From a virus (Duplodnaviria; Heunggongvirae; Uroviricota; Caudoviricetes): 21,533 nt of DNA. The first letter of the stretch is position 1. The number at the start of each line of letters is the position of its first letter. The notes beneath the pieces were generated by a model. That model did no database searches and had not been told where the DNA came from. It was given only the letters and a program-made list of their open reading frames with translations. Position numbers and translations under genes: made by a program. Of this stretch, positions 1 through 19,998 are shown piece after piece. Where the stretch lies: the IMG/VR virus record IMGVR_UViG_2713897073_000007. One strand, given 5' to 3'.

Positions 1-996
1 TTAACGAACCAGCCAGACCAGCATCAGGATAATCGCGACTAACAGTATCCACAGCGCGGGACGCGTTGCCATATTTTGCAACGTGTCCATCATCGGTGGA
101 AAAGGATTAAGCAGCGGTTGCATAACACGCGGATCAATCCCTTTAACCCGCCGTTGATAAAGCTGATTAAGAATATCCTCGGCCTGGGCAGAAGAAAGCG
201 ATGATTGCGCAGAAAGACCATATTTTTGCTGGATATATGCCGATAACGCCGCCAGTTCACTGGCATCTAAAGGTTGTTTTAGCGTCATCTGTAGTGATTC
301 CAGCGTCGGCGTATTTTGCTGGCTTAGCGTCTGACGCGCCTGTAGCCAGGTCACCAGATGGTTAAACAGTTTCGCTGGAATTAACTCGCCATCTTTCACC
401 CCGGAAAGTTCCAGCATCGATTGCCAGATCTGTTTGCTGGGTTCCCCCGTTGCCGCCGCAAGTTTGGTCACCAGCTGTTTTAGCGCATTGTGCTCCGCCG
501 GTAATAAAGGACGGTCGGTCGCCTCGCGCTGCTGTGGTTGCGGAATAACCATCTTCCCTTCCTGCAACAGGGTGAGAATGGTTTTTAATTGCTCCGGTGA
601 GAGCTGATTCAGCGGCGTCTGACCAAAGTTATGACGGATATAATCCGTGACCGCCTGACGATTATTCCCCAGACGTAAATACTCCCCTAATTGCGCTAAA
701 AGCTGGCGGGCAGAATGGCTTTTTTGCGCGGCCAGCAGACGTTGCGCCAGATTATGCTCAGCGGCAGGGAAGTGACGCGAAAGCAGCGGTGAATCTCCCG
801 ACAGACCAATATCGTGCCTGATACCCGCCCACAGTTCTGCTCTTTGCTGTTGCGTCAGTGAGGTCACTTTCGTCATTAAGCTTTCCAGCGAAGTACGTTG
901 CTGACTGGATAAAGGCTGATTGCCCGTGCCAGACGGCAGATTATCTCCCTGACCTGGTGGTTGCCCAGGAGGAGGGCCGGAAATAGGTTGTATCAT
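1..996 (-). CDS. flk: Flk-like tail-anchored inner-membrane protein (flagellar biosynthesis regulator Flk family); probable host core gene flanking the island
   Basis: 331-aa ORF with Pro/Gln-rich N-terminus (MIQPISGPPPGQPPGQ...) and a single hydrophobic helix at the extreme C-terminus (ALWILLVAIILMLVWLV); size and topology match Flk. Identification is from memory of the family, not a search. Confidence 0.45.
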   Translation of the reverse strand: MIQPISGPPPGQPPGQGDNLPSGTGNQPLSSQQRTSLESLMTKVTSLTQQQRAELWAGIRHDIGLSGDSPLLSRHFPAAEHNLAQRLLAAQKSHSARQLLAQLGEYLRLGNNRQAVTDYIRHNFGQTPLNQLSPEQLKTILTLLQEGKMVIPQPQQREATDRPLLPAEHNALKQLVTKLAAATGEPSKQIWQSMLELSGVKDGELIPAKLFNHLVTWLQARQTLSQQNTPTLESLQMTLKQPLDASELAALSAYIQQKYGLSAQSSLSSAQAEDILNQLYQRRVKGIDPRVMQPLLNPFPPMMDTLQNMATRPALWILLVAIILMLVWLVR

Positions 997-1199
997 TACG
1001 TATCCTTATACCTGAAATCTTCGCAAGTATGCCTGGCCGCGAGATTATGGCACACTTGTCCGGTTAACTCTCGTCTCATACAGGTAACACAAACGTGAAA
1101 ATCCTTGTTGATGAAAAAGATGTTGATTTAACTTTTTGATATAAAAGGATTTGTATCGGCGCATGTCCACGCAGTGACCACATTTTCGAGTTATAGATA

Positions 1200-1231
1200 A
1201 CACAAAGCCCGTTTTCACGGGCTTTGTGTTA
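1200..1231. terminator. Perfect 13-bp inverted repeat hairpin (AACACAAAGCCCG - 6 nt loop - CGGGCTTTGTGTT) just downstream of the minus-strand accessory operon and upstream of flk
   Basis: Read directly from sequence; GC-rich centre with U-rich stem ends; lies 15 nt after the stop at 1246. No clean T-run follows, so terminator function is inferred. Confidence 0.35.
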
Positions 1232-1245
1232 TCTGTGATTGTGGC

Positions 1246-2156
1246 TTAGCCGCATGATTTATACTGTTTCCAGTTACAGGCTTCTTGAAGCGGTTTTAGC
1301 GTGGTTGACAGGCCGTTTAAATTGAAAGTTGCACTTACAGGGCTTTCATTATAAGGGGTTATTTTTGCATACATTTTGTTTGAGTTGGCTAGTTTTCTGA
1401 TGAAGTTAATGTCATTGCCTTTATAAAAAACAGCCTTTGTATCTGTAGATACTAGCCAGTTTCGCTCAACTGCTTTCTGTTTATCAAGGCGATACAGCAT
1501 GCTGGTTTGTTCAAGGCCTAAATATACATCCCAATTAAGAAATACTTCGGTTTTCTTTTCTCGGCAAGCTATAAACAGAGTAGGGGTAACCGCTTCTCCA
1601 AATGGAGTTCTTATATAATCATCACTTTCTAACGATAAAATTACATTTTTCGAATCATCAATTGGCGATGTAGTAATGGATGTGTGCCATTTTCCTGTGT
1701 CTGTGGCTTTCTCTAATTTTGATTTAGATTGCGCAACTTTTTCCTGTGGAAATGGTTTATCGTAGCAGTTTATTCTAGTTTCTTTATCGTTTTCTGCTCG
1801 GCATTTAGATATCTCAGAAAGATTTGGTTGCTGAGCCTCTGTTGTTACTAGCTGTTTCGCTTTAGATTTTGAGCTTACAGGCGGAGTAAATGTTGGAGAA
1901 AAAAACGGTCATAACAAGATAAACGTCTGTCATCATCTTTCTCATCAGGGCATTGATCTCTGCTTTCGAATTTTTCAGCAACTGTCGTTCGAGTCGGTTG
2001 TATTGACTTATCATAACAAGAAAGTCTTTCTTTATTATTTTCTATTGCTCGGCACTGGAGTGATGACTTAAAGTTATTATGCTCAGTTGCTGCGTGAGCA
2101 GGTAGCACACTAATTGATATAAATGATGCACCTATAGAAATAATCATATTTTTCAT
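1246..2156 (-). pseudogene. Secreted Cys-motif repeat protein interrupted by a frameshift at a homopolymer (ORF 1875..2156 carries the signal peptide and two C-x8-9-RLxCYD motifs; the frame open from 1908 down to 1246 carries a third motif and about 220 further codons)
   Basis: N-terminal signal peptide MKNMIISIGASFISISVLPAHA-A. Motifs CRAIENNKERLSCYD, CPDEKDDDRRLSCYD in frame A and CRAENDKETRINCYD in frame B. Frame B has no ATG start of its own before 1500 and opens immediately after a stop at 1909-1911. The A7 run at 1899-1905 (T7 on the coding strand) sits exactly where the frames switch; one extra base would fuse them into an ORF of about 300 aa. Confidence 0.55.
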
Positions 2157-2160
2157 TTTG

Positions 2161-2493
2161 TTATCCCTTTGGTTTAGTAAGAAATACTAAATTTCCGATA
2201 ATGATATTGCAAATAACCCATAAGCCTCCAATAGCAATTAAACCTAAGCCCGTACCAATAACTGTACCGGCTTTTTCGGCATCGGATGTGGCGTTGTTTA
2301 TTATTTCACCCACCTCTCTTAGCCCAACACAAATCGTGTAGATTATAAAAATATTAAATAATATGAAAAAATACTTAATGAGTTCTCCAAAAAATGAACG
2401 TTTAAGTTTTTTCAGTTGTTTGCCACAAGCAGGGCAAGACAATACTGAATCGATCACCTCTTTCTGGCATTCAGGACATTTGATTAATGCCAT
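2161..2493 (-). CDS. Zinc-ribbon membrane protein (N-terminal CPxC...CPxC ribbon followed by two predicted transmembrane helices), AT-rich accessory gene
   Basis: ORF-track ORF 2161..2538; preferred start at the internal Met of MALIKCPECQKE..., which is preceded by AGGAGG at 8-nt spacing. Motifs CPECQ and CPACGK; hydrophobic stretches FFILFNIFIIYTICVGL and LGLIAIGGLWVICNIIIGNLVFL. Ends 4 nt before the downstream gene start at 2156 (operon). Confidence 0.6.
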   Translation of the reverse strand: MALIKCPECQKEVIDSVLSCPACGKQLKKLKRSFFGELIKYFFILFNIFIIYTICVGLREVGEIINNATSDAEKAGTVIGTGLGLIAIGGLWVICNIIIGNLVFLTKPKG

Positions 2494-2640
2494 ATAATCT
2501 GCCTCCTTTGGCTCTCTACTAGCTGACGTTTGTAACAAAACATTTTGATTTTATCAGACTTTTTATTGATATGTGTCAATTGATTAGCTGGTATAGAGTG
2601 AGACAGGATGCCTTATCGACCTTACTCTGGCAACTGATTG

Positions 2641-2660
2641 ACGGGGGATTGCTCCCCCGT
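2641..2660 (-). terminator. Stem-loop ACGGGGGA-TTGC-TCCCCCGT located 10 nt 3' of the hok-like stop; probable 3' structural element or terminator of the hok-like mRNA
   Basis: 8-bp perfect inverted repeat read from sequence; position relative to the toxin ORF matches the structured 3' end known for hok mRNAs. Confidence 0.4.
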
Positions 2661-2670
2661 CGCGGTTTCC

Positions 2671-2811
2671 TTACTGCTTACACTGTAAGAACGCCGCAAA
2701 CTCCGCTCCCCAGAAACTCATCCGTATTTCACACAGCGAACCGTGCAGCATCCAGATGATGAGGATTGCCGTCACGCAGAACGTGATGGCCGTAAGCGAT
2801 TTTTGCGACAT
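2671..2811 (-). CDS. hok: Hok/Gef-family type I toxin, 46 aa (MSQKSLTAITFCVTAILIIWMLHGSLCEIRMSFWGAEFAAFLQCKQ); below the ORF-track length cutoff
   Basis: Hand translation from ATG at 2811-2809 to TAA at 2673-2671, anchored on the ORF-track frames 2729..2941 and 2571..2759. Strong SD AAGGAG 8 nt upstream. N-terminal transmembrane helix followed by the family signature SLCEIR and a C-terminal E-x-AAF-L-x-C motif, as in Hok, Gef and HokA. Confidence 0.7.
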   Translation of the reverse strand: MSQKSLTAITFCVTAILIIWMLHGSLCEIRMSFWGAEFAAFLQCKQ

Positions 2812-2941
2812 AGCACTTGCTCCTTTTCCGGAGAGGCGCTAACCTTTCACTTGTCAAGGTAATGCGGTTAGGGCCTCGGTTAAACAGATATGTTTTCCGG
2901 GGCCTTTCCACATCCGGCCTTCGGGTATTCCCTCCGACCAT
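2729..2941 (-). CDS. mok: mok-like overlapping reading frame (70 aa) that starts upstream of and overlaps the hok-like ORF in another frame
   Basis: ORF-track ORF 2729..2941. The architecture (a roughly 70-codon frame overlapping most of hok, start about 130 nt upstream of the hok ATG) matches hok/mok/sok loci. The sequence itself is low-complexity, so the call rests on architecture. Confidence 0.45.
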   Translation of the reverse strand: MVGGNTRRPDVERPRKTYLFNRGPNRITLTSERLAPLRKRSKCYVAKIAYGHHVLRDGNPHHLDAARFAV

Positions 2942-3001
2942 CAGCCGAAAGGCACCCGCACGTAATCTATCGCTTTTTTGTTACTCCGGCAATTCTGCCT
3001 G

Positions 3002-3262
3002 TTAATCCTGAGGTAAAGGCAAACTCATCTGATTGTTTCCCCTGTGTGAAGCTGGCAGCTCATGCCACGGGATACCTTCTGATGAGTGAACGCCGGAGGC
3101 GTGTTTCGATGTGAATTTATGGAAAGCTTCCAGTGTTGAGAAGCATACGCCGCATTCCAGATTGTTACACTGGTAATACTTTTGCCGCACGGTGTTTGAA
3201 TCATTTTCCGGACGACTGGTGCGGATACGGGCAGATGCGCCACAAAGCGGACAACGGAACAT
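3002..3262 (-). CDS. ogr: Ogr/Delta-family zinc-finger late-gene transcription activator
   Basis: MFRCPLCGASARIRTSR...YYQCNNLECGVCF matches the P2 Ogr pattern MFHCPLC...RTSR...HQCQNVNC as recalled; Cys4 zinc finger; sits directly downstream of gene D as in P2. At 86 aa it is longer than P2 Ogr (72 aa). Confidence 0.85.
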   Translation of the reverse strand: MFRCPLCGASARIRTSRPENDSNTVRQKYYQCNNLECGVCFSTLEAFHKFTSKHASGVHSSEGIPWHELPASHRGNNQMSLPLPQD

Positions 3263-3304
3263 AGCGACCTCCCTTAACGTGGTGCTGCCGCTATTCTAAG
3301 TTGC

Positions 3305-4414
3305 TCACTCTGTTTCCGCTATCCATTCCGGGATTTTTGCCTCAAGCTCAAGCTGCGTGGTAAAGCCGCTGTTATCAATGGTGTGCCCGGCTTTTGCAAT
3401 AATCCAGTCCTGATTATCAATCTCGCTTTTAAATCCTGTTACCGTGCCATGCATTTCGGGGTAGAGCTCTGCACGTCCACGCGCCAGCGTGATGGAGAAT
3501 GATGCGGCTCCGCGTTGTAGTTGCTGCCACTTTGCCGCCGCTGCGCGTCTTGCTGCCTGCTCGTTCTGATAAGTCTTGCGTAACACAAACACATTGCCTT
3601 CCGCGCCTTCCATATAATCACCTTCACGGCTGCTGCTTTTCTCCTTTTTGGGTTTTGGCGGTTTACGGCGTTTCACGCTGACTTTTTTCTTTTTCCCGTA
3701 ATTAAGATCAAGCCAGTAGGCGCGTACCCCCGTATACGCCTCGCGGTCAGCAATGCGGAACTGATGGCGATCGCCGCTGCTGCGTGTAATGGCGAACGAG
3801 GGCAACGGCTGGCCCTGTGCGTTCACGCCACCACCTGGCATGATGAATAACAGATTGCCGCTTTTTACCGTGGTGATTGCACCCAGCATTTCCGCCATGC
3901 GCGTAAGGAAGGACATGTCGCTTTCTTCGGTCTGGTCGGCGTGGTCGATTTCGATATCCATCAGCATTTCGCTGATTTGCGGTTTCAGACCATACCGATG
4001 AGCGATGGCGGATACCACACGCTCAACGGTCACATCATGCCAGGACACCTCACGTTTAACGTTAAATTCATCCCAAAAATCTGCGCTTCTGGCTGAAACA
4101 GTCAGCCTGTCCGGCGGTCCTTCGTGAGCGATTTCATCAACAATGTAAGTGCCTTTTTCTGTCAGCGGTTCTCCCTTCCAGCCAATGAGAACCGTCAGGC
4201 GCGCGCCCCGTGGCGGTAGCTGCAACTGACCATCCGCATCATCCAGCGTGATGGTGAGCTGGTCCGCCTCAAATCCCCGGTTGTCGGTCAGTGACAGGCT
4301 CATCAGGCGCTCTGCCACGCCTGACAGCGTTTTACCCTCCGCGAGAATATCAAAATCCGGCATTTTTACGGGGTCTGTGCCCTGACTGAGCAATTGCATG
4401 GTGGTGTCGGTCAT
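3305..4414 (-). CDS. D: P2 gpD-like tail protein (late control gene D family)
   Basis: ORF-track ORF 3305..4546. Protein has the conserved SLSLTDNRGFEADQL block, a central Lys-rich stretch (KKKKVSVKRRKPPKPKKEK) and C-terminal NSGFTTQLEL typical of gpD. Preferred start is the internal Met of MTDTTMQLLSQ (about 4414), preceded by GGGAGGGAG. Confidence 0.85.
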   Translation of the reverse strand: MTDTTMQLLSQGTDPVKMPDFDILAEGKTLSGVAERLMSLSLTDNRGFEADQLTITLDDADGQLQLPPRGARLTVLIGWKGEPLTEKGTYIVDEIAHEGPPDRLTVSARSADFWDEFNVKREVSWHDVTVERVVSAIAHRYGLKPQISEMLMDIEIDHADQTEESDMSFLTRMAEMLGAITTVKSGNLLFIMPGGGVNAQGQPLPSFAITRSSGDRHQFRIADREAYTGVRAYWLDLNYGKKKKVSVKRRKPPKPKKEKSSSREGDYMEGAEGNVFVLRKTYQNEQAARRAAAAKWQQLQRGAASFSITLARGRAELYPEMHGTVTGFKSEIDNQDWIIAKAGHTIDNSGFTTQLELEAKIPEWIAETE

Positions 4415-4571: not shown

Positions 4572-5756
4572 ATGAGTGAAACTCGTTTTCATGGTGCCCG
4601 TGTTACGGAAAATACCGACCTGGTAACAGCGATTAACGATGTTGATTCCAGCGTTATCGGTATCGTGGCAACGGCGGATGATGCGGACGCGAAGCTGTTC
4701 CCGCTGAACAAGCCCACACTGCTGACCCGCGTCAATGACGTGCTGGGAAAATGCGGGACAACGGGGACGCTTTATCGTGCGCTTAAGGCCATCGCAGACC
4801 AGGTGAGTACAAAGGTGATCGTCGTTCGCGTGGCTGAACACAAAGAAGAAGACGGAAAAACGCAGGATCAACTGGTTATCGGTGGTTCTGAATCTGACGG
4901 CAGCTATACGGGGATGTATGCGCTGCTTGTTGCAGAGCAGGATGAAAGCATCGGATACCGTCCGCGTATTCTGGCCGCGCCGGAGCTGGACACGGAGGCG
5001 GTAACAAAATCCCTGTGCGTGATTGCGGGTAAACTGCGCGCGTTTGTGTATGCCTCATGTCACGGCTGTAACACGATGGCTGAGGCGATTACCTACCGCC
5101 AGAAATTCAACGAACGTGAGGTGATGCTCTTATGGCCGGACTTCATCGCCTACAACCCGAAAAGTGGCAAAAACGAAACGTTCCCCGCGCCTGCCTATGC
5201 GTGCGGCCTTCGTGCGTACATTGACCATGAGCAGGGTTGGCACAAATCGCTGTCCAACGTTCCGGTTAAAAATGTGCTGGGGATGTCCAGGCATGTGTTC
5301 TGGTCGTTGCAGGCCGAAGACAGTGATGCCAACAGCCTCAACAACAAAGAAATCACGACCATTATTCGTCGCAACGGGTTCCGCTTCTGGGGCAACCGCA
5401 CACCGGAAACGAACGCCTACATCTTTGAGGTGTATACCCGAACCGCACAGGTGCTGGCTGATTCAATTGCGGAAGCGCAGTTTGAAACCATCGATAGTCC
5501 ACTGACGCCTGCGAACGTGAAGGATGTTATCAGTGCCATCAGGGCAAAACTGGATTCACTGGTGACTGCCGGGAAACTGATTGGGGCGTCGTGCTGGTAT
5601 GACGTGGTGGATAACAGCACCACGAATTTACGTCAGGGGCGTGTGCGTATTCGCTACAAATATACGCCCGTTCCTCCGCTGGAAGACATGGAGCTTTACC
5701 AGTCGTTTACTGATGAATTCTTTGGTCCCGCATTTGCGGTGCTGGGAGGTGCCTGA
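4572..5756 (+). CDS. FI: Contractile tail sheath protein (P2 gpFI family)
   Basis: 394 aa; N-terminal region ...ADDADAKLFPLNKPTLLT... aligns with recalled P2 FI (...ASDADAETFPLNKPVLIT...); SD AAGGGG upstream; followed immediately by the tube gene. Confidence 0.9.
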   Translation: MSETRFHGARVTENTDLVTAINDVDSSVIGIVATADDADAKLFPLNKPTLLTRVNDVLGKCGTTGTLYRALKAIADQVSTKVIVVRVAEHKEEDGKTQDQLVIGGSESDGSYTGMYALLVAEQDESIGYRPRILAAPELDTEAVTKSLCVIAGKLRAFVYASCHGCNTMAEAITYRQKFNEREVMLLWPDFIAYNPKSGKNETFPAPAYACGLRAYIDHEQGWHKSLSNVPVKNVLGMSRHVFWSLQAEDSDANSLNNKEITTIIRRNGFRFWGNRTPETNAYIFEVYTRTAQVLADSIAEAQFETIDSPLTPANVKDVISAIRAKLDSLVTAGKLIGASCWYDVVDNSTTNLRQGRVRIRYKYTPVPPLEDMELYQSFTDEFFGPAFAVLGGA

Positions 5757-6268
5757 TGGCTGTACCAAAACATCTTCGCTTTTTTACGCTGTTTGTGGAT
5801 GGTGAAAACGAAGTGGGTAAGGTGACGTCCGTCACCCTGCCTAAACTGACGCGCAAAACCGACAGCTACCGGGGTGGTGGCATGATGGGTGCGGTAAGTA
5901 TTGATCTCGGTCTGGACGACTCCGCGCTTGATGCGAGCTTTGTCATGGGGGGCGCAGTTCGTGAGCTGTTCCTTAAGTATGGCGGCACGATTGACGGCAC
6001 GCTACTGCGTTTTGCGGGTGAATACTACACCGATGCAGAAAGCGACCTGTATGAAGTCGAAATGCGCGGACGCGTGACGGAAATTGATATGGGGGAAGCC
6101 AAACAGGGCGAAGCCACATCACACACTTACGCCATTAAAAACACCTACTACAAGCTGAGTGTTAACGATCGTCCGTTGTGGGAGATTGACCTGCTGAACT
6201 TCATTTACCGGAAGGACGGCAAGGACATTGTGCCCGATCGCATCCGTTCCGCGCTTGGGCTTGGCTGA
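5756..6268 (+). CDS. FII: Tail tube protein (P2 gpFII family)
   Basis: 170 aa; start overlaps the FI stop (TGATG); position and size match FII; N-terminal pattern ...FVDGENEVGKVTSVTLPKLTRKTDSYRGGGM resembles recalled P2 FII. Confidence 0.85.
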   Translation: MAVPKHLRFFTLFVDGENEVGKVTSVTLPKLTRKTDSYRGGGMMGAVSIDLGLDDSALDASFVMGGAVRELFLKYGGTIDGTLLRFAGEYYTDAESDLYEVEMRGRVTEIDMGEAKQGEATSHTYAIKNTYYKLSVNDRPLWEIDLLNFIYRKDGKDIVPDRIRSALGLG

Positions 6269-10309: not shown

Positions 10310-10795
10310 ATGCTGAATAATAGAGATATGAATATTAATGAACTTAAAGACTGTATTCACTATGAAGTAATCGGTAGCGAGCGTCCTTTCTCCTGGCGAA
10401 AGGCAATTGTTCGCGCAATAAAACATAGAAGACTTCGTTATTTATTTTGGTGGCGCATAGCCAAATACCTTTTTGATAAAGGCGGATACTGCCGGAAGAT
10501 TGCGGGGAAAATAGAACGTTTCATTCTTGATAAATATAATGTAACAGTCCCTTTAACTGTAAATATAGGGAAAGGCTTTGATATTTCTTATCTCAACAGT
10601 GTTGTTATCGGTCACAAAGTAACAATCGGTGAAAATTGTTCAATAAAACCGGGGGTAACTATTGGGCTACGTGGTGATTTTAATGATATGGATATTGTTA
10701 TAGGACATAATGTGACCATTGGTTGTAATGCCACCATTCTTGGTGGCAAAGTGCGTATAGGAAACAATGTCACAATAGGTGCTCATGCATTGGTA
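10310..10795 (+). pseudogene. 3'-truncated hexapeptide-repeat (left-handed beta-helix) acyltransferase, AT-rich cargo gene
   Basis: Tandem hexapeptide repeats VTIGENCSIKPGVTIG / IVIGHNVTIGCNATILGGKVRIGNNVTIGAHALV; the last 23 aa of the ORF (TTTFKNFKESLTITSFFRIVAVK) are the reverse-strand reading of the tail-fibre fragment, so the gene is cut at about 10795. Confidence 0.6.
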
Positions 10796-11290
10796 ACCAC
10801 CACCTTCAAGAACTTCAAGGAGTCCCTGACCATAACTTCCTTCTTCCGGATAGTTGCGGTCAAATGAAGCGATTGAGCCACTACTGTTTCGCCATAAACC
10901 AAGATGCTCTGCGCCTCCGAGCGTGTTCAGGTCAATGGTTGTGCTCAGGGGGCGTGTTGCAGACTGAACCTGACGCCAGTAACTCCACGGACCGTCTGAA
11001 CCATTCCATGTGCCAGAAAGGTTGCGCATATAAACATTGCCTGTTCTGGTGGTGTAACGCTGCATTCCTGCAAAATTACCGCCATTGAATACCTCCAGTA
11101 CACCGACTGCACCGTCTTCAGGGAAATTTTTAGCAGCCGTCGCGTTAGTGGATGTAGCTTTAGACCAGACGCCAAGATAAGCCTTAACGGGACCAAATGT
11201 ATTCAAGTCAGCATCAAGCGGCATTTCGCCATTGTTTTTCATAAACGTCAGGCTGGTAACGCCAACATTGTCCAGAAAAGCGCCCTTATC
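10796..11290 (-). pseudogene. Internal fragment of a phage tail fibre gene (gpH-like), truncated at both ends
   Basis: ORF-track ORF 10667..11242 with its frame open upstream to about 11290. Gly/Asn/Thr/Ser-rich fibre-like sequence (GVLEVFNGGNFAGMQRYTTRTGNVYMRNLSGTWNGSDGPWSYW...GQGLLEVLEGGGY). The final 40 aa are an antisense read of the acyltransferase DNA. Family assignment is by composition and synteny only. Confidence 0.45.
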
Positions 11291-11835
11291 TCCACGCGTT
11301 GCACACCGTGCACATGCAGTGCGGCAGCAATGGCGGACAACGCCACGTCCTGACCGATAAGCCCCTGCTCAGCCAGCCACTTCCTGAACGACGATTCAGC
11401 CGCAGCCAGAATAGGTTCGGATTCCGGGCCGGGATAAAAGTACAGTTTTGCATTCAGCCGCCATGTCACGATTCTGGCGCTCTGTACGGTCAGGCGGTCG
11501 GCCACCGGGCGGGTATCCTCTGCATTCAGAACGGCACGAACGGTATTAAGCAACGCCTCCGTTGCTGTGCCGTCGCCTTCAGTGGACAGGATGGAAACCG
11601 TCACACAGGCCGGAGACGGGCTGATGGCCCGCGCATCACGCACCAGACCGCTGGCGCTGCGTGCAAAATACTCGTATGCACCTGACGGGCCAGCAACACT
11701 CAGGCCGTCGTACGCCCGCTGCGCCCGCAGTCTCAGCGAGGTGTCGCTCTCCATCACCGCGTCGGTGGTATCCGTTGCCGGAGTGATAACCAGGCGCTTT
11801 GTGTTCATATTGCCCGCGAGGTTGTCCAGGTCTGT
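11248..11835 (-). pseudogene. J: Baseplate protein gpJ fragment lacking the N-terminal third and probably the C-terminal end
   Basis: ORF 11248..11886; the segment TKRLVITPATDTTDAVMESDTSLRLRAQRAYDGLSVAGPSGAYEY...SPSPACVTVSILS...RPVADRLTVQSA...YFYPGPESEPI...LHVHGVQRVEI matches recalled P2 J residues from about 100 to 270. The first 17 codons of the ORF are an out-of-frame read of capsid-gene DNA. Confidence 0.65.
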
Positions 11836-12463
11836 CATCCAGCAGGGATGAGCGCGCGTCCTGTACCAGTGCATCAGCGTTCGCATACTTACCCGCGTGC
11901 GCCACTGTGTTGTCCATGTTGCGGGAAGTCAGCGTCACGTCATTCATTACGCGTTCACTGGCATCGGTTCTGATGTGCTCCAGCCAGCCCACGTTAACGT
12001 CCTGAAGCAGCTTGTTGGTGCTGAAATTGGATTTTTCCGCGTGTGATGTGCCGTTAAAGCCGATCATGATGCGGTCAAGCGCCACCTGCCGGGCAATCTG
12101 TGTGCTGATGCGCGACTGAAAATCGCTGTGAGCCGCCCAGGCATCAAGCTTCGGGTATGAAATAAACGTGTCGTAGTTCACCTGTTCACACTGGTACTGA
12201 CGAGCCTTCATATCGACAGCGTTAATCGGATTACGGCGATCTGTGCCGTCATAACTGGTATTCGTGCGCGCAATCGGCCCGGTGGTGTCCAGGAGAACTT
12301 TTTCGCCTTTCTGGTCAGTTACACCGATTACATTAATTCTTTTCGTAAATTCGGTACTTTCCTTTGAAGCGTTTTCAAAACGCTGTTGTACCGATGGATT
12401 GACGGTAAATCGCGATACCAGCGCAGAAACCGGGATATTGTTAAGCGACGCCTGCTGCGTCAT
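11836..12463 (-). pseudogene. N: Major capsid protein gpN fragment (N-terminal about 210 aa)
   Basis: ORF 11636..12463; FTVNPSVQQ...RINVIGVTDQKGEKV...YQCEQVNYDTFISYPKLDAWA...IMIGFNG...LLQDVNVGWLEHIR...ADALVQDA matches recalled P2 N N-terminal region. Homology stops near 11836, after which the frame reads J-fragment DNA. Confidence 0.65.
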
Positions 12464-12508
12464 GTAGCAGCCCAGCTTGTTACGGGCATTAATTACTCAG
12501 GGGGAGCA

Positions 12509-13765
12509 ATGATTCAGGACGCTTTTGTGCGCCAGCGTGCGCGGCAACTTTACTGGCAGGGTTATCCGCCCGCAGAAATATCACGTCTGATGGGAATAAA
12601 CCCGAACACGATTTATGCGTGGAAAAAACGCGACCAGTGGGATGAAACGCCCCCCGTGCAGCGTGTCACGCAGTCCATCGATGCGCGCCTCATCCAGCTT
12701 ACTGAAAAACAGAATAAAACAGGCGGTGACTTTAAGGAAATAGACCTGCTGACCCGGCAGCTTAAAAAGCTGCATGATGGCCAGCCGGATGTGATGGCCG
12801 CAGGAAAGAAAGGCCGGGCGAAAAAACTTAAAAATCATTTCACGCCGGAACAGATTGCCGCACTGCGGGAAAAAATCATCAGCAGGCTGGAGTGGCATCA
12901 GCGGGGCTGGTTTGACTCCCTGACACTTTGCAGGGAAGCCGGGATACGTAACAGGATGATCCTGAAATCCCGACAGATTGGGGCGACCTGGTATTTTGCA
13001 CAGGAAGCTCTGCTGATGGCGCTGCGTGACGATGTGGCGCAACCTTACCAGCGTAACCAGATTTTTTTGTCTGCGTCGCGTCGTCAGGCGTTCCAGTTTA
13101 AAAGCATTATTCAGAAGGTCGCGGCTGAAGTTGATGTGGAGCTGAAAGGGGGCGATAAAATCATCCTCTCCAACGGCGCAGAGCTGCATTTTCTCGGCAC
13201 TTCTGCTGCGTCGGCACAGTCCTATACGGGCAATTTTTATTTTGATGAATTTTTCTGGGTCAGTCGCTTTGCTGAACTGCGCAAGGTGGCTGGCGCTATG
13301 GCAACCCTCAGCGGACTGCGGCGCACCTACTTCTCCACGCCATCCACCGAAACGCACGAGGCGTACGCCTACTGGAACGGCGACCGCTGGAACGAGAAAA
13401 AGGCCTCGCATAAACGCCAGCGTTTTTCTGTGGACTGGAAAACGCTGCATAACGGGCTTATCTGCCCTGACCGGACTTGGCGGCAAATTGTCACGCTGGA
13501 AGATGTGGTTAATCACGGCTGGAAACACACCGATATCGACGAAATTCGTGATGAAAACACCGAAGACGAGTTCCTCAATCTCTATATGTGTGAGTTTGTC
13601 CGCGAAGGGGAATCGGCATTTAACCTGAATATCCTGATTGGCTGCGGTGTTGACGGATACGACGACTGGAAAGACTGGAAACCTTTTGCTCCCCGCCCGA
13701 TGGGGAATCGTCCGGTATGGATTGGGTATGACGCAAACGGCAGCAGTGGCAACGGCGACACCGTG
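12509..13765 (+). pseudogene. P: Terminase ATPase (large) subunit, P2 gpP family, 3'-truncated
   Basis: ORF 12386..13840; preferred start MIQDAF at 12509 with SD GGGGGAG; Walker-A-like KSRQIGATWYFAQEA; the last roughly 25 aa (RMPYQRRPSRFSFLRTAAKNELTR) are an antisense read of the gpA fragment. Family size is about 590 aa, so roughly 170 C-terminal residues are missing. Confidence 0.7.
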
Positions 13766-15042
13766 CGGATGCCATACCAGCGCAGGCCGTCGCGGTTCAG
13801 TTTCTTGCGGACCGCCGCAAAAAACGAGTTAACCAGGTAATCGCTGGAGTCGCGCATAGTGGCCCCGTTCCATTTGGGATTCGGATGACCGTTCTCCGTT
13901 GTTGCGTGGTATTTTGACGGGCAGGTGACAGTCAGAAACACCGCTCTGTCGCCACGGGCTTCGGCCAGAAGTTCCAGCCCCTTCATGGTGGCCATCATTT
14001 CTGCCTTACGGTGAACCGGGTTACTTACTCCCGCGTAATACACTGTCTCAAGATCAATCGTGAACCCGTCTTCGTTTTCCAGCATGAAACTTTTCAGGAA
14101 ATCGCGTGTTTTCTCGCGCTGTGCGCGAAACTCGCTTAACGCATCCTGGCTCAGATAGGGCGATGTTTTTCTGGAAACCAGACAGGCGGCGCGGAGTTGT
14201 TCTTCTCTCCACTCGCAACGTAACAGCCACAGTTTGCGTTTCCACCATTCCGCACAGGTCAGGCGAAGGATTGCGCCCGGCAGCAGCTCCGTGTCTGGTT
14301 CGTTCCTCCGGCCTTTGTCTGTTGTCAGTGCGTCATAATGCGGAGGCATGGCGTGCAGGTGTAACGCCATGCGGGCCAGCATCTGATACGCCTTCAGCGT
14401 TACATCCATGGTCAGCTCGCCATCAGTCGCACCAAAGCCATCGCAGAGTTTTTCGAAGGTGCTGCTGAACATCGCCGCCGTCATGGTGGCCAGCGTCTGT
14501 ATCTGGTGTTTGTTGAGCTGCGGCAGGTAAAGCAAATCGTCCAGGCGTTCGCGTCCGGCAAGGGAGCGATAACCCGGTGTCAGCCAGTGTCCGTCAGTGC
14601 GATCCAGACGTTCGAATATTTTGCGCAGGGTTCCGCGTGCATAGCGTTCTGCCTGCCAGCTCTTTTTGCCTTTCCGGCGATCGACTTCCTGTTTTTTGCG
14701 CAGGAAGGAGAGGTGGCGAATAAGCGGATCGCGCAGATAGGACGGCAGCAGGCGCAGCGAGGCCATGGCTTCATCCACCGCGCCGCGTGCCTGTCTTCTG
14801 GCGTCTCCTGCCAGCGTGATGGTTTTGTCCTGTTTTTCCTGTGCGTCCAGGCTTTTATTAATCAGGTTGCCCAGTGGCGTGGCAGAGAACGCCGCATCAG
14901 CCTTTTCCTGTCGGCGCTCGTTCTCTGCCTGGTAGGCATCCAGCCAGGAGGAAAGCGCGGATTCAGGTGCGGGGATCCCCGTTCCTTCACGCCCCACTGC
15001 GTGGCGCGGTTGTTGCCAGTCCCTGATGTACTCTGTCGTCAT
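13759..15042 (-). pseudogene. A: Replication initiation protein gpA family (rolling-circle initiator), 3'-truncated after about 428 aa
   Basis: ORF 13582..15042 directly downstream of the early operon; sequence up to ...GLRWYGIRTV is protein-like, the following 58 aa are Pro/Ser-rich antisense of terminase DNA. P2 A is about 760 aa. Convergent with the P fragment. Confidence 0.65.
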
Positions 15043-15048
15043 ACTGAT

Positions 15049-15414
15049 TTACTGCGTCATACCGTTCAGGGTGTCACGGCAAACGGCAGCCAGCCGCTGA
15101 ATTTCCAGCACGGTGTCTTCTGTGTCGGCATAGCGATGTGTGATGCGGATGCTGTCGGCAATCACATCGACGATTGCAGAGGATGGGCGCTGGTAAATGC
15201 CAATAACGGACGGAGTGCCACCTTCAATGCGGTAAAGCCTGTAATTTCCCTCGTGGCTGTCAATCATGTAGCGACCATCAATAACAATCTTTCCGTCAGC
15301 GAGCTGCGGTACAGGCAGGGATTTCAGGTACATGTCATAACGTTCACGCACGCGAACGGCAAGATCACGCTCTGTGTTGAGCAGGTATTCAAGAAAGTCG
15401 TTGGCGAGAATCAT
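15049..15414 (-). CDS. Hypothetical early-operon protein (121 aa), immediately upstream of the A fragment
   Basis: ORF-track ORF; position corresponds to the orf83-like slot before gene A in P2-family early operons; no recognisable motif. Confidence 0.5.
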   Translation of the reverse strand: MILANDFLEYLLNTERDLAVRVRERYDMYLKSLPVPQLADGKIVIDGRYMIDSHEGNYRLYRIEGGTPSVIGIYQRPSSAIVDVIADSIRITHRYADTEDTVLEIQRLAAVCRDTLNGMTQ

Positions 15415-15486
15415 TGCGGCAATCCTCTTGTTACAGATGTGCGAAGGCCTCCTGCCGCAAGGTGCAGGAAAGGCCCGGAACAGGAA

Positions 15487-15717
15487 TTAATGGAGTTTGT
15501 TTTGCTGCTGGATGAGCTGCTGAAGCTCGCGCAGATCATCCGCCAGATAACTGAAAACAGCGGATGAGTAGAGGTTTGAAAGTTCGCAGCTACGCTCATG
15601 CAGCATATTGATGTGCATGATTTTAGCGACGCGGAATGCGCGGGAAAGTCTGCGGTTGATTTCAGTCTGGATGTGACGACGCTCCGCGATAGCGCGGTGC
15701 TGTTTGCGGTTTGCCAT
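15487..15717 (-). CDS. Hypothetical small basic protein (76 aa)
   Basis: ORF-track ORF; Arg/Lys-rich N-terminus (MANRKQHRAIAERRHIQTEINRRLSRAFR) suggests nucleic-acid binding; function unassigned. Confidence 0.4.
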   Translation of the reverse strand: MANRKQHRAIAERRHIQTEINRRLSRAFRVAKIMHINMLHERSCELSNLYSSAVFSYLADDLRELQQLIQQQNKLH

Positions 15718-15896
15718 GGTGTGGCCTCTTTGGTTGTAAGTTTTGAAAACTCACCATCCAGAGCTGCGAAACTGTGGGTGGCGAGACGTACGGGGTTCGC
15801 AGTACCGGCAACCAAAGAACCCGGCCCGACCGAAGTCGGCCCCGTACGCCCCGCCATAATTCTGACGCGAAAAAAACGTGGCAATACAGTACGCAC

Positions 15897-15917
15897 AAAA
15901 AAACCGCTGGCGCGGTT
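15897..15917 (-). terminator. Hairpin ACCGC-NNNN-GCGGT followed by a T7 run on the minus strand
   Basis: Read from sequence (plus strand shows A7 then ACCGCTGGCGCGGTT); lies in the 367-bp non-coding gap between the SPFH module and the 76-aa gene. Confidence 0.4.
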
Positions 15918-16053
15918 GTGCGCTTTGGTTGTCAGCAGGCTGCGAAACCCGGCACCCGTTTTATGAGGTGCAGCGAAAATGTAACCTGACTGATTGCGGC
16001 ATGGCAAGCGGTTTTTTTGTGAGAACGGCATACTAAAAAATCCTGATACTGCT

Positions 16054-16078
16054 CCGGCCAGCGGTTTGCACTGGCCGG
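16054..16078 (-). terminator. 8-bp inverted repeat CCGGCCAG - 9 nt - CTGGCCGG starting 7 nt after the SPFH lipoprotein stop
   Basis: Read from sequence; a T6 run follows on the minus strand only after a 13-nt spacer, so intrinsic-terminator function is uncertain. Confidence 0.35.
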
Positions 16079-16084
16079 GTGTCA

Positions 16085-16915
16085 TTACTTCACGGGAACG
16101 AACGGAACAGCGGTGTTACTGGTCATGTATTGCGGCAGCGTGCCGTTCCATTTGTTGATTGCTTCCAGCTCCATAACGCCGGGATTCTGGCGCAGAGCTT
16201 CGCCGCGTAAACGAATGGCGTCGGCTTCAGCCTGGGCTTTTGTGCGAATGGCATCGGCCTGTCCGGCAGCTTCTGCGCGCAACATGTTGGCTTCTGCTTC
16301 GCGTTGCTTGACTTCCTGTTCGCGTTGCAGGGTTTTCTGGTTTGCCGTGACTTTGGCGTTAATGCTGTCGATAACGGTTGGCGGATATTCCGGTTTACCG
16401 ACATAAGAGAGGCTCATGACCTGAATACCGATGGGGGTCATCTCTTCCTGAATATCTTTAAGTGCTGAATCCAGCAGTTCAGACTTACCACCGTCGATAA
16501 ACTTATCGGTGGTCATTTTGCTGGCCAGTCGGTTGAGTGCATCGGCGATCTTCTGGCGCAGGTCAGTGTCGGTAATGTCGTCCACGCCTTTGCGGTAGGT
16601 CTGAAACACCGTGGTAACTTTGGATGGATCAACTTTGTAGGCCACGCCGATGTGATAGCCGATGGTTGTGCCGTCACTCATCTGGAAGTTGAACGGCTCA
16701 TCGTAACTCTTCATTTGTTTGAAGGTCGGGAAGATGTAAACCTCTGTATTCCAGCCTGTCCAGTAGCGGCCAACGCCAACCACTTCACCGACGCCTTTGT
16801 CGTCGCCCAGTTTGTTGACTTTGATGCCCACATTACCTGGCTCAACGCGATCGCAACCAACCAGCAGGATGGCGGCAAAAAGCGGGAGAATCTGAAAGAG
16901 TCTGAATTTCTTCAT
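16085..16915 (-). CDS. SPFH/band-7 (stomatin-prohibitin-like) domain lipoprotein
   Basis: 276 aa; signal peptide with lipobox (LLVGC); central band-7-like region; C-terminal Ala/Glu/Gln-rich coiled coil (QREQEVKQREAEANMLRAEAAGQADAIRTKAQAEADAIRLRGEALRQN). Start overlaps the upstream gene stop (ATGA). Confidence 0.75.
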   Translation of the reverse strand: MKKFRLFQILPLFAAILLVGCDRVEPGNVGIKVNKLGDDKGVGEVVGVGRYWTGWNTEVYIFPTFKQMKSYDEPFNFQMSDGTTIGYHIGVAYKVDPSKVTTVFQTYRKGVDDITDTDLRQKIADALNRLASKMTTDKFIDGGKSELLDSALKDIQEEMTPIGIQVMSLSYVGKPEYPPTVIDSINAKVTANQKTLQREQEVKQREAEANMLRAEAAGQADAIRTKAQAEADAIRLRGEALRQNPGVMELEAINKWNGTLPQYMTSNTAVPFVPVK

Positions 16916-17115
16916 TGTTTGATTTCCTTGATGTACTTACTGAAAAGGCGAACAACGCCTGCCGGGTACAGCATGGCAATGAAAATTCCCAGCAATACCA
17001 GGAAGGAGCTGTCTGATGAAATCATTCGGGGGAGTAGTCCTGCATACAGAATGAGAGAGACGAGGACGCATACCAGCGCCCACATGTATGCGCGAAACCA
17101 GGTCTTTTTGTTCAT
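16912..17115 (-). CDS. Small membrane protein (67 aa, two predicted transmembrane helices), translationally coupled to the SPFH lipoprotein
   Basis: Hydrophobic segments WALVCVLVSLILYAGLL and FLVLLGIFIAMLYPAGVV; 4-nt overlap with the downstream start. Confidence 0.6.
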   Translation of the reverse strand: MNKKTWFRAYMWALVCVLVSLILYAGLLPRMISSDSSFLVLLGIFIAMLYPAGVVRLFSKYIKEIKQ

Positions 17116-17126
17116 ATCGCGGTCCT

Positions 17127-17426
17127 TTACTGGTTAAGGAAAAAATCGAAAACGTTGTCGATGCGTTGCAGCGGCTCCTGCTGCATTGCTTCCGGCGTTT
17201 CTGATTCACCTGGTGACTCCAGCGTCGCGCAAAAATCCTTGATTTCATGATGGAGCGTCAGACGAATGGCAGGAGCCATGGTTCTGGCGTGCTCCAGCTC
17301 ATCCAGCAGTGCCAGCACGGCAGATGGCGAGAGCATTGCGCGAAACGCCAGTAATTTTTGATGCGTTGCCATTCGTTGCAGGTCAGTCGCCAGTTCGCGT
17401 AATTCCTGGTGGTTGATGGCGCTCAT
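17127..17426 (-). CDS. Hypothetical early-operon protein (99 aa, acidic C-terminus)
   Basis: ORF-track ORF; ATGA overlap with the upstream gene; no recognisable motif. Confidence 0.5.
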   Translation of the reverse strand: MSAINHQELRELATDLQRMATHQKLLAFRAMLSPSAVLALLDELEHARTMAPAIRLTLHHEIKDFCATLESPGESETPEAMQQEPLQRIDNVFDFFLNQ

Positions 17427-17689
17427 GCTCTGGCTTCCTTCAGTAGCAGGTTAAACATGTGAGTAAGTGGATTGCTACACCCGAACGGCATCGGGTTTAC
17501 GTGGTAAGAAGCCTGGCCTCCTGCTTTGCGAGCGCGACCACCTGTGCTGCGGTTTGTTCTGATGACTAAGCCGCCGCGCCAGAGTCGGCGTAACTCAGCA
17601 TTGATGGCTGTGGTTGGGGTATTCAGTGCTGCGGCGATTTCTCCGCCGCTACAACCCGGATGGGTAGCGATGTAGTCCAGAATGGTCAT
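17423..17689 (-). CDS. Small winged-helix-like DNA-binding protein (88 aa)
   Basis: MTILDYIATHPGCSGGEIAAALNTPTTAINAELRRLWRGGLVIR resembles a helix-turn-helix/wing pattern; coupled overlaps on both sides. Confidence 0.5.
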   Translation of the reverse strand: MTILDYIATHPGCSGGEIAAALNTPTTAINAELRRLWRGGLVIRTNRSTGGRARKAGGQASYHVNPMPFGCSNPLTHMFNLLLKEARA

Positions 17690-17889
17690 CTGCGTGACTC
17701 CTGTACCTGTCGGATAAGGTTCACCCGCACCACATTCGTGGCGCAGAAGTAAGTGCCGTCAGTGAGATAGATGTGATGTGCATCCTTTTCCGAACGATGT
17801 TTGTCGATAGTGGTAATCAGTCGTTCGTCGACCTCGTATTCGCGGTCTCTGGAGGTGAAGCGAACGACAGGAAAATGCTTAATTGCCAT
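17686..17889 (-). CDS. Hypothetical early-operon protein (67 aa)
   Basis: ORF-track ORF; overlaps neighbouring genes by 1-4 nt. Confidence 0.45.
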   Translation of the reverse strand: MAIKHFPVVRFTSRDREYEVDERLITTIDKHRSEKDAHHIYLTDGTYFCATNVVRVNLIRQVQESRR

Positions 17890-18206
17890 TACACCCTCTT
17901 GGCTTTATGTCTGTATTTGAGCTTTTCTATTTCTTCTTTTTGTTCTTTTAATGTTCTTATGGCTGTGAAAACATTAAAGCCCATAAAATGTGCTCTGTTC
18001 GCTAATGTAATACTGGCACCTTTGTTAGCTATATCATCTTCAATATCAGTGAAATACTGACTGATTTCTTTTAGTGCGGCGCAAAGCTTTGCGAGATCTC
18101 GCCCCCTGTCAAAATATGCATCCTTCAGTATTTTTTGATTTGTCCTGAGCATGCTAACCTCGTGTTTATATATATGGATACCTCCGCGAGTGCGGATTGT
18201 TTTCAT
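17889..18206 (-). CDS. Hypothetical protein (105 aa) encoded in an AT-rich insert within the early operon
   Basis: ORF-track ORF; local base composition is markedly more AT-rich than the flanking phage genes; charged, Lys/Glu-rich C-terminus. Confidence 0.5.
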   Translation of the reverse strand: MKTIRTRGGIHIYKHEVSMLRTNQKILKDAYFDRGRDLAKLCAALKEISQYFTDIEDDIANKGASITLANRAHFMGFNVFTAIRTLKEQKEEIEKLKYRHKAKRV

Positions 18207-18241
18207 GTTTTCTTATTTAATCGTGTGTTTTATTTGTGCTG

Positions 18242-18355
18242 TTATTCTTCAGTGAAAAAACGCTCAATCTTTTTTACTGAATGAATAATTCGCATAATCC
18301 CAATAGCGCAGGCCACCGAAATAATCAGAACAAGCCATGAGATAAATATACTCAT
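18242..18355 (-). CDS. Small hydrophobic peptide (37 aa, MSIFISWLVLIISVACAIGIMRIIHSVKKIERFFTEE), not in the ORF track
   Basis: Hand translation; ATG overlaps the stop of the upstream 81-aa gene in an ATGA arrangement; one predicted transmembrane helix followed by a basic/acidic tail; AT-rich. Confidence 0.4.
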   Translation of the reverse strand: MSIFISWLVLIISVACAIGIMRIIHSVKKIERFFTEE

Positions 18356-18597
18356 GCGATATTCCCCAGCTTATACGGTTCAATATGTTCCCCGCATTCT
18401 GCGGCACAGATCAGCTCGGAAAGTTCGTTAAGTGCATCCAGATCATCAGCGTAAAAAGCCACGTCATACAGACTTCGGATTGCTCTGGTCAATGAGTCAC
18501 GGGCCGCACGTTCAGCATGAGCGCCTGATGCACTTAAGCGAAAATAAAAACGCTCAAGTGCTTTGTTAATGAGAGTTTTATATTCTTTGCCCATCAC
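18352..18597 (-). CDS. Hypothetical early-operon protein (81 aa)
   Basis: ORF-track ORF; no recognisable motif. Confidence 0.5.
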   Translation of the reverse strand: MMGKEYKTLINKALERFYFRLSASGAHAERAARDSLTRAIRSLYDVAFYADDLDALNELSELICAAECGEHIEPYKLGNIA

Positions 18598-19710: not shown

Positions 19711-19998
19711 CTAAAGTCCCAGCCACAACAACCATGCGTCGCGGCGTTCTTTCGGTTGCTCAAAAAACGCTTTGCGCATGCCTTCGTTAAATGCTGGCAG
19801 ATATACCCAGTTTTCTGATGCACGCGTCTTCACTGAACCTGGTTTCACAAAGTCAATCGTTGGTAACTTTGCAGCGTCAATCATGGTTCTGACGGTTGAT
19901 TCTTTGCGACCAATCATCTTGGCAAATAGTTGATATGGCACCGCTTCAAGTGGATATGGTGCTACCTGAATGAACCCCTCAAGCTCTGATTCGCTCAT
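19711..19998 (-). CDS. cox: Cox-family excisionase / early-promoter repressor
   Basis: ...WVYLPAFNEGMRKAFFEQPKERRDAWLLWLGL matches recalled P2 Cox (...YWVYLPAWNNGLKLAYESRPKEIRDGWLMWLGL); divergent from the C repressor gene; SD GGGAGA 8 nt upstream. Confidence 0.85.
   Translation of the reverse strand: MSESELEGFIQVAPYPLEAVPYQLFAKMIGRKESTVRTMIDAAKLPTIDFVKPGSVKTRASENWVYLPAFNEGMRKAFFEQPKERRDAWLLWLGL

Follow-up and report, generated by a model that had tools for sequence, protein, structure and literature searches.

A phage gene pair for an SPFH lipoprotein and a small membrane-hairpin partner, carried by a P88-type prophage and by phages of other lifestyles

The gene pair and its predicted products

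The window analyzed here, a stretch of 21,533 nucleotides (nt) from a Caudoviricetes record in IMG/VR (IMGVR_UViG_2713897073_000007), carries on its minus strand a pair of adjoining genes for membrane-associated proteins. The upstream gene (16912..17115) encodes a protein of 67 amino acids (aa) with two helices, predicted to form a hairpin in the inner membrane, and the downstream gene (16085..16915) encodes a 276-aa lipoprotein with an SPFH, or Band-7, domain. Both open reading frames (ORFs) lie where the original prediction, made from the sequence alone, had placed them, and the strand, absent from that prediction, can now be added. Their translational coupling, likewise predicted, is evident from the ATGA at 16915..16912, in which the TGA of the small ORF overlaps the ATG of the SPFH gene, and from an AAGGA-type ribosome-binding site 8-9 nt 5' of each ORF. 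The hairpin said to follow the pair is also present, as a GC-rich 10-bp stem with a 5-nt loop in the centroid structure (16054..16078, minus strand), 6 nt past the SPFH stop codon and followed by a run of six U residues (16035..16040, minus strand). Together the data speak for a conserved membrane module of two proteins: an SPFH protein anchored in the inner membrane and facing the periplasm, and a hairpin partner that works with it.

The larger protein begins with a signal peptide and lipobox (residues 1-21; 16853..16915, minus strand) that reads L-V-G-C21, with aspartate (D22) at position +2. Residues 23-209 (16289..16849, minus strand) match the Pfam Band_7 family (E 6.5e-31; 108.2 bits against a cutoff of 23.6), and this match and the lipobox bear out the description of the protein as an SPFH-like lipoprotein. 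In PHROGs it belongs to phrog_200, 'lipoprotein' (E 6e-112). An AlphaFold2 model built from 68 homologues (predicted local distance difference test score, pLDDT, 87.3) has a beta-rich SPFH core (21-176), a single 65-residue helix rich in Ala, Glu and Gln (179-243 by DSSP on the model; 16187..16381, minus strand) and a short helix (245-255). Searched with Foldseek against the PDB, the model gave full-length matches with probability 1.00 at 14-18% sequence identity, headed by HflC (7vhq_G, E 2.5e-13) and including prohibitin, erlin, HflK, stomatin, flotillin, QmcA and major vault protein. The SPFH fold is thus confirmed by Pfam, AlphaFold2 and Foldseek together. The long C-terminal coiled coil of the original prediction stands as a long helix, and as a coiled coil it is a candidate; the helix is the counterpart of the one that forms the wall in SPFH cages.

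A profile search of PDB sequences also recovered HflK (5e-7), QmcA (1e-6) and prohibitin, and the matches to HflK, HflC, prohibitin and QmcA span the long helix. In the NCBIfam scan HflC and HflK were the only matches, both below threshold (25.7 bits against 134.4 and 23.4 against 159.4; TIGR01932/TIGR01933), which places the protein in a separate SPFH subfamily, orthologous to neither HflK nor HflC. Labels such as 'serine protease' and 'transposase' are common for this gene in database records. We reject the first, found in older records, as the domain scan found no protease domain; it probably derives from the old association of SPFH proteins with NfeD/ClpP.

The lipobox cysteine is kept in 90 of 101 diverse representatives of the family, and aspartate at +2 in all 96 close enterobacterial homologues that carry the motif C-x-[RK]-VEPG. 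Under the E. coli sorting rule a lipoprotein with aspartate at +2 stays in the inner membrane, so retention there is predicted for the SPFH lipoprotein. The gene is under strong purifying selection, with a ratio of nonsynonymous to synonymous substitution rates (dN/dS) of 0.04-0.10 in comparisons with the P88, Stx2, P1-like and pMT1 copies.

The small protein has basic N and C termini and two hydrophobic helices separated by a conserved turn, L-L-P-R-M-I-S-S-D-S, for which the consensus in the partner family is P-x-[LM]-[IV]-S-[SA]-x-[DS]. It is a member of phrog_1130, 'membrane protein' (E 1.3e-22). No Pfam family was found for it, none of eight partners contains an NfeD domain in Pfam at E <= 1, and a search of PDB sequences at E <= 10 gave no relative and no match to YbbJ. 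These negatives rule out an NfeD protein as the identity of the partner.

Conservation of the pair and spread of the family

Many phages, plasmids and prophages have, ahead of the SPFH gene, a homologous ORF of 60-72 aa with two helices and this turn motif. In the Stx2 phage it is unannotated and overlaps the SPFH gene by 4 nt; in a P1-like plasmid and in pMT1 it lies upstream of the SPFH gene, as it does in a Salmonella Enc34-like prophage and an Epibacterium prophage. The record of the N4-like phage KpCHEMY26 remarks of its partner '2 TMDs N in C in', and in the rV5-like phage GAP31 the partner is upstream with one gene between it and the SPFH gene. When 179 loci were searched with a hidden Markov model (HMM) of the partner, it was found directly upstream on the same strand in 143, fused in 4, displaced by IS1 in 2 and absent in 30. 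In a set with one genome per species, gathered with a single peptide pattern and therefore a biased sample in which Dyella is over-represented, 51 of 80 loci had an adjacent partner, 2 a fused and 2 a displaced one, and 25 none; at least four of the 'none' loci hold a divergent two-helix ORF that the partner HMM missed. The predicted small two-helix partner is thus a conserved companion, adjacent in most loci and sometimes fused.

Two further arrangements were seen. In Shigella flexneri and E. coli ECMA0423 (L101 and L102, ~5220..5950) an IS1 element, with its InsA and InsB ORFs, sits exactly at the junction of partner and SPFH gene and breaks the translational coupling. In metagenome-assembled genomes of Cytophagales/Bacteroidota (L161-L172) another conserved ORF, of ~100 aa, lies 80-105 nt upstream of the SPFH lipoprotein gene; with a hydrophobic segment at the N terminus and the motif ...LRI at the C terminus, it may be an alternative partner.

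The strongest evidence that the partner is real comes from fusions. About 19 of the best 150 cluster representatives are in-frame fusions of 330-390 aa, in which hairpin, basic linker, a third hydrophobic stretch bearing a lipobox, and SPFH domain follow one another. One of them was confirmed at the DNA level; it lies between the genes for a cI-like repressor and the integrase of a Rhodopseudomonas prophage, and the secondary structure of its AlphaFold2 model reads as helices at 7-32, 37-62 and 67-85 ahead of the SPFH domain. In the fusions, segments and charges follow an order that leads to one consistent topology, in which both ends of the hairpin are cytoplasmic, and its turn and the SPFH domain are periplasmic. 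The natural fusions (P0284, P0287, P0289, P0292 and P0295 among them) keep an internal lipobox behind the hairpin, and signal peptidase II might cut one fused precursor into two proteins, an unusual route to a lipoprotein.

The two proteins differ in how far they have diverged. Between the window and the Stx2 copy the mature SPFH core is 93% identical, whereas the small partners share only ~25%. The nucleotide match between 16118..16855 of the window and 2676..3413 of the Stx2 phage locus (L002) covers the mature SPFH core only; signal peptide, C-terminal tail and partner are swapped between P88-type and Stx-type copies. These exchanges place recombination breakpoints inside the SPFH gene and indicate that the core recombines between partner types.

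By tblastn, 385 of 50,697 phage records hold a relative of the SPFH protein. These include N4-like Schitoviridae (KpCHEMY26, Jura, phiEaP8 and Pokken), rV5-like Vequintavirinae (PVP-SE1 and GAP31), FelixO1-like Ounavirinae (phiEa21-4), Bruynoghevirus, phiCbK-like phages, Lak megaphages and one crAss-like phage, lineages that by established taxonomy are strictly virulent. In virulent phages the gene is located among early, nucleotide-metabolism or replication genes, for instance beside the genes for RNA polymerase and dUTPase, after that for DNA polymerase, or in the block of the gyrase inhibitor Igy. Two metagenomic relatives lie between genes for a homing endonuclease, ribonucleotide reductase, a MazG-like protein and glutaredoxin. 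Among temperate phages, an SPFH core with ~92% nucleotide identity adjoins int/xis in Stx2-converting phages and phiP27, and in other prophages the pair is found between the genes for a single-stranded-DNA-binding protein and PolA, or between repressor and integrase. Relatives were also counted in 393 of 5426 complete E. coli genomes and in 674 plasmid records, of which 631 are non-mobilizable replicons of ~90-110 kb, namely P1-like and pMT1/SSU5-like phage-plasmids, with Yersinia pestis pMT1 among them. A HMMER search run exhaustively over 1.84 billion cluster representatives returned 2890 at E <= 1e-3 and 223 at E <= 1e-30.

The family also extends to chromosomes. In Dyella and related Rhodanobacteraceae the pair occupies a chromosomal locus that is syntenic across ~17 species, with housekeeping neighbours: a BlaR1-type peptidase, a MacB/FtsX transporter, hemerythrin and ribonucleotide reductase. 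This synteny indicates that the module has a general cellular membrane function and has been taken up repeatedly by phages.

Prophage setting and transcription

The prophage that carries the pair in the window is P2-like, of the P88 type (Xuanwuvirus), and defective. The region is 95% identical in nucleotide sequence to phage P88, in which the two genes are gp11, 'membrane protein', and gp12, 'lipoprotein', and the cassette is 100% identical to that of E. coli strain 99-3165. The order on the minus strand is cox (19711..19998), several small genes, a MarR-like gene, an Ead-like gene (17127..17426), the pair, the isrK RNA (15774..15971; Rfam, 65.9 bits), the C4 antisense RNA (15487..15717; Rfam, 87.1 bits), the gene for a 76-aa 'derepression protein', a 121-aa ORF and replication gene A (13582..15042), truncated to 486 aa from 940 aa in P88. 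The pair therefore lies inside the early operon, between cox and the truncated gene A, as had been proposed.

Its description as cargo is borne out by an insertion-deletion difference. In blastn against the related phage P884B11, positions 13759-16021 and 17127-17903 of the window align. In place of the intervening 1105 nt P884B11 has 18 nt, and its Ead-like stop codon is linked almost directly to the isrK promoter. The accessory cassette defined in this way (16022..17126, minus strand) comprises the small gene, the SPFH gene and the 3' hairpin. It occurs in P88 and in the window and is missing from the sister Xuanwuvirus genomes, and the sister phages have no hairpin either. Among 5426 complete E. 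coli genomes the cassette is complete in 145 and the adjacent isrK/C4 segment is found in 1153. The indel and this rarity relative to the isrK/C4 segment mark the pair as an accessory minority allele of the phage group, and the position of the hairpin inside the indel means that it travels with the cassette.

Only 11 nt separate the Ead-like gene from the small gene. A crude consensus scan of the minus strand (15400..18400) found no promoter-like site within 1.3 kb upstream of the pair, and the only two sites it found are those of isrK and C4. Given the short gap and the lack of a promoter-like site, transcription of the pair is expected to come from the repressed early lytic operon. The hairpin was not called an intrinsic terminator in the terminator scan, because the U-run begins ~12 nt beyond the stem. 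Such a role is unsupported, and a strong terminator at this position would cut off the downstream early genes. Of the features expected of a moron, presence or absence among collinear phages is seen, and an own promoter and terminator are not, as far as the crude scan reaches.

Several other features of the prophage were observed. The isrK and C4 RNAs each have a promoter-like site and are followed by the 76-aa 'derepression protein' (PF25738); together they make up an antirepressor unit under RNA control, as in P1/P7 c4-ant or Gifsy-1 IsrK, situated in a P2-like early region. A 224-aa ORF (15411..16085, minus strand) overlaps both RNAs and was rejected as almost certainly spurious; its counterpart in P884B11 (NC_049391 gp51; L003, 2710..3327) is annotated 'transcriptional regulator', and PGAP treats it as a pseudogene. 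The early operon also holds a 37-aa membrane ORF with a single helix (18242..18355, minus strand), the counterpart of P88 gp07, 'membrane protein'. The remnant of gene A abuts fragments of the large terminase gene (12386..13840, on the other strand), a P2 capsid gene (11636..12463) and a baseplate J gene (11248..11886). Decay is seen over 11248..15042 of the window, and the SPFH pair and the early genes are still intact. Beside tail-fibre remnants lies a gene for a hexapeptide-repeat acetyltransferase (10310..10867, plus strand), called a serine acetyltransferase by PGAP in a related strain, which may be a cargo gene whose product modifies a surface structure. Beyond ogr (3002..3262), the prophage end (1..2538, minus strand) is a further cargo region with a zinc-ribbon protein (2161..2538), VasI-like fragments (1246..1500 and 1875..2156) and a 331-aa protein of no clear family; in strain 99-3165 the same region contains a Hok/Gef gene.

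A putative periplasmic cage for lytic growth and its alternatives

Several known systems resemble the module in part. The HflK/HflC-FtsH complex of E. coli (PDB 7vhp/7vhq, 7wi3, 9cz2) shares with it an SPFH1/2 core with a long wall helix, a membrane-embedded partner and an SPFH domain that for the phage protein, too, is expected in the periplasm, and it provides the best Foldseek and profile matches. In contrast to HflK and HflC, which are two paralogous subunits with N-terminal transmembrane anchors, the phage protein is the product of a single gene and has a lipid anchor; it shows low identity to them and scores under both family cutoffs, and the partner in the phage-borne module is a 67-aa hairpin and no protease. 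The SPFH-NfeD operons (QmcA-YbbJ, PDB 8z5g; YqiK-YqiJ) likewise combine an SPFH gene with one for a small membrane protein, and QmcA is among both the structural and the sequence matches. The phage partner, however, has no NfeD/OB domain or similarity to YbbJ, and its gene is upstream and translationally coupled. QmcA also faces the cytoplasm, whereas the phage SPFH protein should face the periplasm.

The prohibitin PHB1/PHB2 rings (PDB 8rrh, 9o9z) are close in subunit length (272 against 276 aa), align by profile over residues 10-235 and rank among the top Foldseek matches, but they are eukaryotic, mitochondrial and hetero-oligomeric; their anchor is a transmembrane one, and a small hairpin partner is absent. 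Phage exclusion proteins of the envelope include T4 Imm and Sp, which are early genes of a virulent phage, P22 SieA, HK97 gp15 and the lipoproteins Llp, Cor and TP-J34 Ltp. Like the pair they are small, non-essential, variable membrane proteins or lipoproteins acting at the envelope; they show no kinship to it in sequence or fold, and none is an SPFH protein. Direct membership exists in PHROG 200 and PHROG 1130, and in P88 gp12 and gp11, which are annotation bins with frequent mislabels. Finally, the prophage-encoded HflK/C-like SPFH protein PM0222 of Pasteurella multocida, studied solely as a virulence and TLR1/2 factor, is comparable by description only.

By analogy with these systems we favor a reading on which we are evenly poised between acceptance and doubt: a cage of the HflK/C or prohibitin type, expressed early, would be built around the hairpin partner on the periplasmic side of the inner membrane and would serve lytic growth. 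The partner would be an inner-membrane protein whose two ends are cytoplasmic. The lipoprotein would be exported, acylated and kept in the inner membrane, with its SPFH domain on the periplasmic face, and would oligomerize via its 65-residue helix into a ring or cage around the membrane patch that holds the partner, as suggested by the HflK/C-FtsH, QmcA-YbbJ, prohibitin, erlin, stomatin and flotillin assemblies. The pair would be made with the early and replication genes during lytic growth and not from the repressed prophage. Its placement in the early operon, its virulent carriers, the lack of an own promoter and the absence of a PADLOC match all point to such a role in lytic growth and away from protection of the lysogen. 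The module would then serve the phage's own cycle by insulating or stabilizing the inner membrane early in infection; its most plausible effect would be a membrane closed to further DNA injection or to leakage, rather than host-protective suicide or defence. Among downstream effects we consider it most likely that the inner membrane is insulated or stabilized, which would include keeping out secondary DNA. An action on FtsH or another client like that of HflK/C comes second, and lysogen defence, holin control and a role in virulence rank lower.

Several observations weigh against this reading. The solved SPFH cages behind the oligomer, the membrane side and the partner contact share only 14-18% identity with the phage protein. 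With an SPFH core that is 93% identical and partners at ~25%, any contact between the two must rest on few conserved residues, and FelixO1-like phages, Bruynoghevirus and many Bacteroidota copies are without a recognizable partner. The pair may be expressed from the prophage, given that the promoter scan was a crude consensus scan, and in Stx phages it lies near int/xis with a 185-nt gap upstream. The syntenic Dyella copies show the basic activity to be a general membrane function, and the specific phage benefit, be it exclusion, stabilization or protease control, is a guess.

The original prediction had suggested, as a speculation, that the pair is a prophage defence system, by superinfection exclusion or abortive infection, and this part was not supported for protection of the lysogen. 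As a rival account, with the hairpin as effector and the SPFH cage as its keeper, blocking DNA entry or killing the infected cell, it has in its favor that the pair is accessory, is mobile among unrelated temperate phages and phage-plasmids, adjoins int/xis in Stx phages, and has stayed intact while the prophage around it lost gene A and most head genes. Its products are also membrane proteins, of which many exclusion systems consist. Yet a PADLOC-DB 2.0 scan of the pair and four neighbouring genes gave nothing meaningful, with no match for the SPFH protein and, for the small protein, only a 14-bit match of 21 residues to PDC-M18B. The crude scan found no promoter belonging to the pair, 11 nt are all that separate it from the upstream early gene, virulent phages, with no lysogen in need of protection, often carry it, and the Dyella locus is a housekeeping one. 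Replication genes, or repressor and integrase, flank the pair in other prophages instead of defence islands. In the literature on SPFH/Band 7 proteins in prophages, anti-phage defence, superinfection exclusion and morons, of which one broad screen was covered in part, we found no functional study of this family and no paper linking SPFH to phage defence. We consider lysogen defence unlikely; exclusion of secondary phages during lytic growth is possible.

To the capture of a host protease we assign a similarly low probability. A periplasmic SPFH ring with a hairpin adaptor would in that case mimic HflK/C and capture or shield FtsH, or another membrane protease or client, altering the turnover of lysis-lysogeny regulators, membrane proteins, sigma-32 or LpxC to the advantage of the phage. 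Phages are known to modulate FtsH, lambda CIII being an example, and early expression would suit such a takeover of the host. HflC and HflK in the FtsH complex are among the best structural and sequence matches and, weak as they are, the sole NCBIfam matches, and the periplasmic orientation inferred for the phage protein is shared with them. Against this stand scores far under the HflK/HflC cutoffs (25.7 against 134.4 bits), one SPFH gene in place of a K/C pair, a lipid anchor in place of an N-terminal helix, and gene neighbourhoods without any tie to FtsH.

Control of lysis timing seems improbable. Here the partner, 62-72 aa long with both termini inside, would form pores like a holin or pinholin, and the SPFH cage would sequester it until release. 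Class II holins are small, with two helices and a charged C terminus, and the partner recalls them in all three respects, but the faint Pfam matches of some partners to holin families (E 0.06-0.17) are at chance level. The phage family has a full set of late lysis genes at another site, as a related prophage shows (holin, M15 endolysin and LysC), the pair belongs to early rather than late blocks, and it is stably maintained in Dyella chromosomes. A role in lysogenic conversion, with a surface-exposed or vesicle-shed lipoprotein acting on an animal host, is the account to which we give the least credence, and a very small one. Its precedent is PM0222, which is reported to be secreted in vesicles, to signal via TLR1/2 and to aid virulence in mice (PMC9872710). 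The gene does occur in Stx phages and in Yersinia pestis pMT1; however, aspartate at +2 predicts inner-membrane retention in enterobacteria, and many members of the family come from virulent environmental phages (of Caulobacter, Erwinia and Pseudomonas) and from marine roseophages. Activation of TLR2, moreover, is a general property of lipoproteins.

The cage reading can be taken further, to a proposal that we regard as doubtful. The module would be a hitherto unrecognized two-part device of phages of all lifestyles in diderm hosts, a lipid-anchored periplasmic SPFH nanocage with a hairpin partner (some lineages produce both in a single precursor, whose internal lipobox signal peptidase II might cut), that would seal the inner membrane early against the DNA of rival phages. 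This would amount to scaffold-based, receptor-independent superinfection exclusion, borrowed from a cellular membrane-maintenance module.

The existence of the gene family is not new, as it is already annotated in PHROGs and as P88 gp11 and gp12. Three things we did not find described in the literature, with the coverage given above: a dedicated partner that is not NfeD and is at times fused, a lipid-anchored arrangement in the periplasm, and a distribution that takes in phages both lytic and temperate as well as some chromosomes. Why this lipoprotein is present in a phage is 'unclear' according to a 2026 paper (PMC13239085). Our analysis corrects the 'serine protease' and 'transposase' mis-annotations and steers away from an unsupported defence label. 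SPFH proteins are universal membrane scaffolds whose bacterial clients are mostly unknown. With relatives in 385 phage records, 393 of the 5426 E. coli genomes and 674 plasmid records, this family is among the more widespread phage accessory genes, and a dedicated partner, a predicted periplasmic site at the inner membrane and an early-lytic placement now make its function approachable by experiment in E. coli, where P88 and P884B11 form a natural pair of phages with and without the module.

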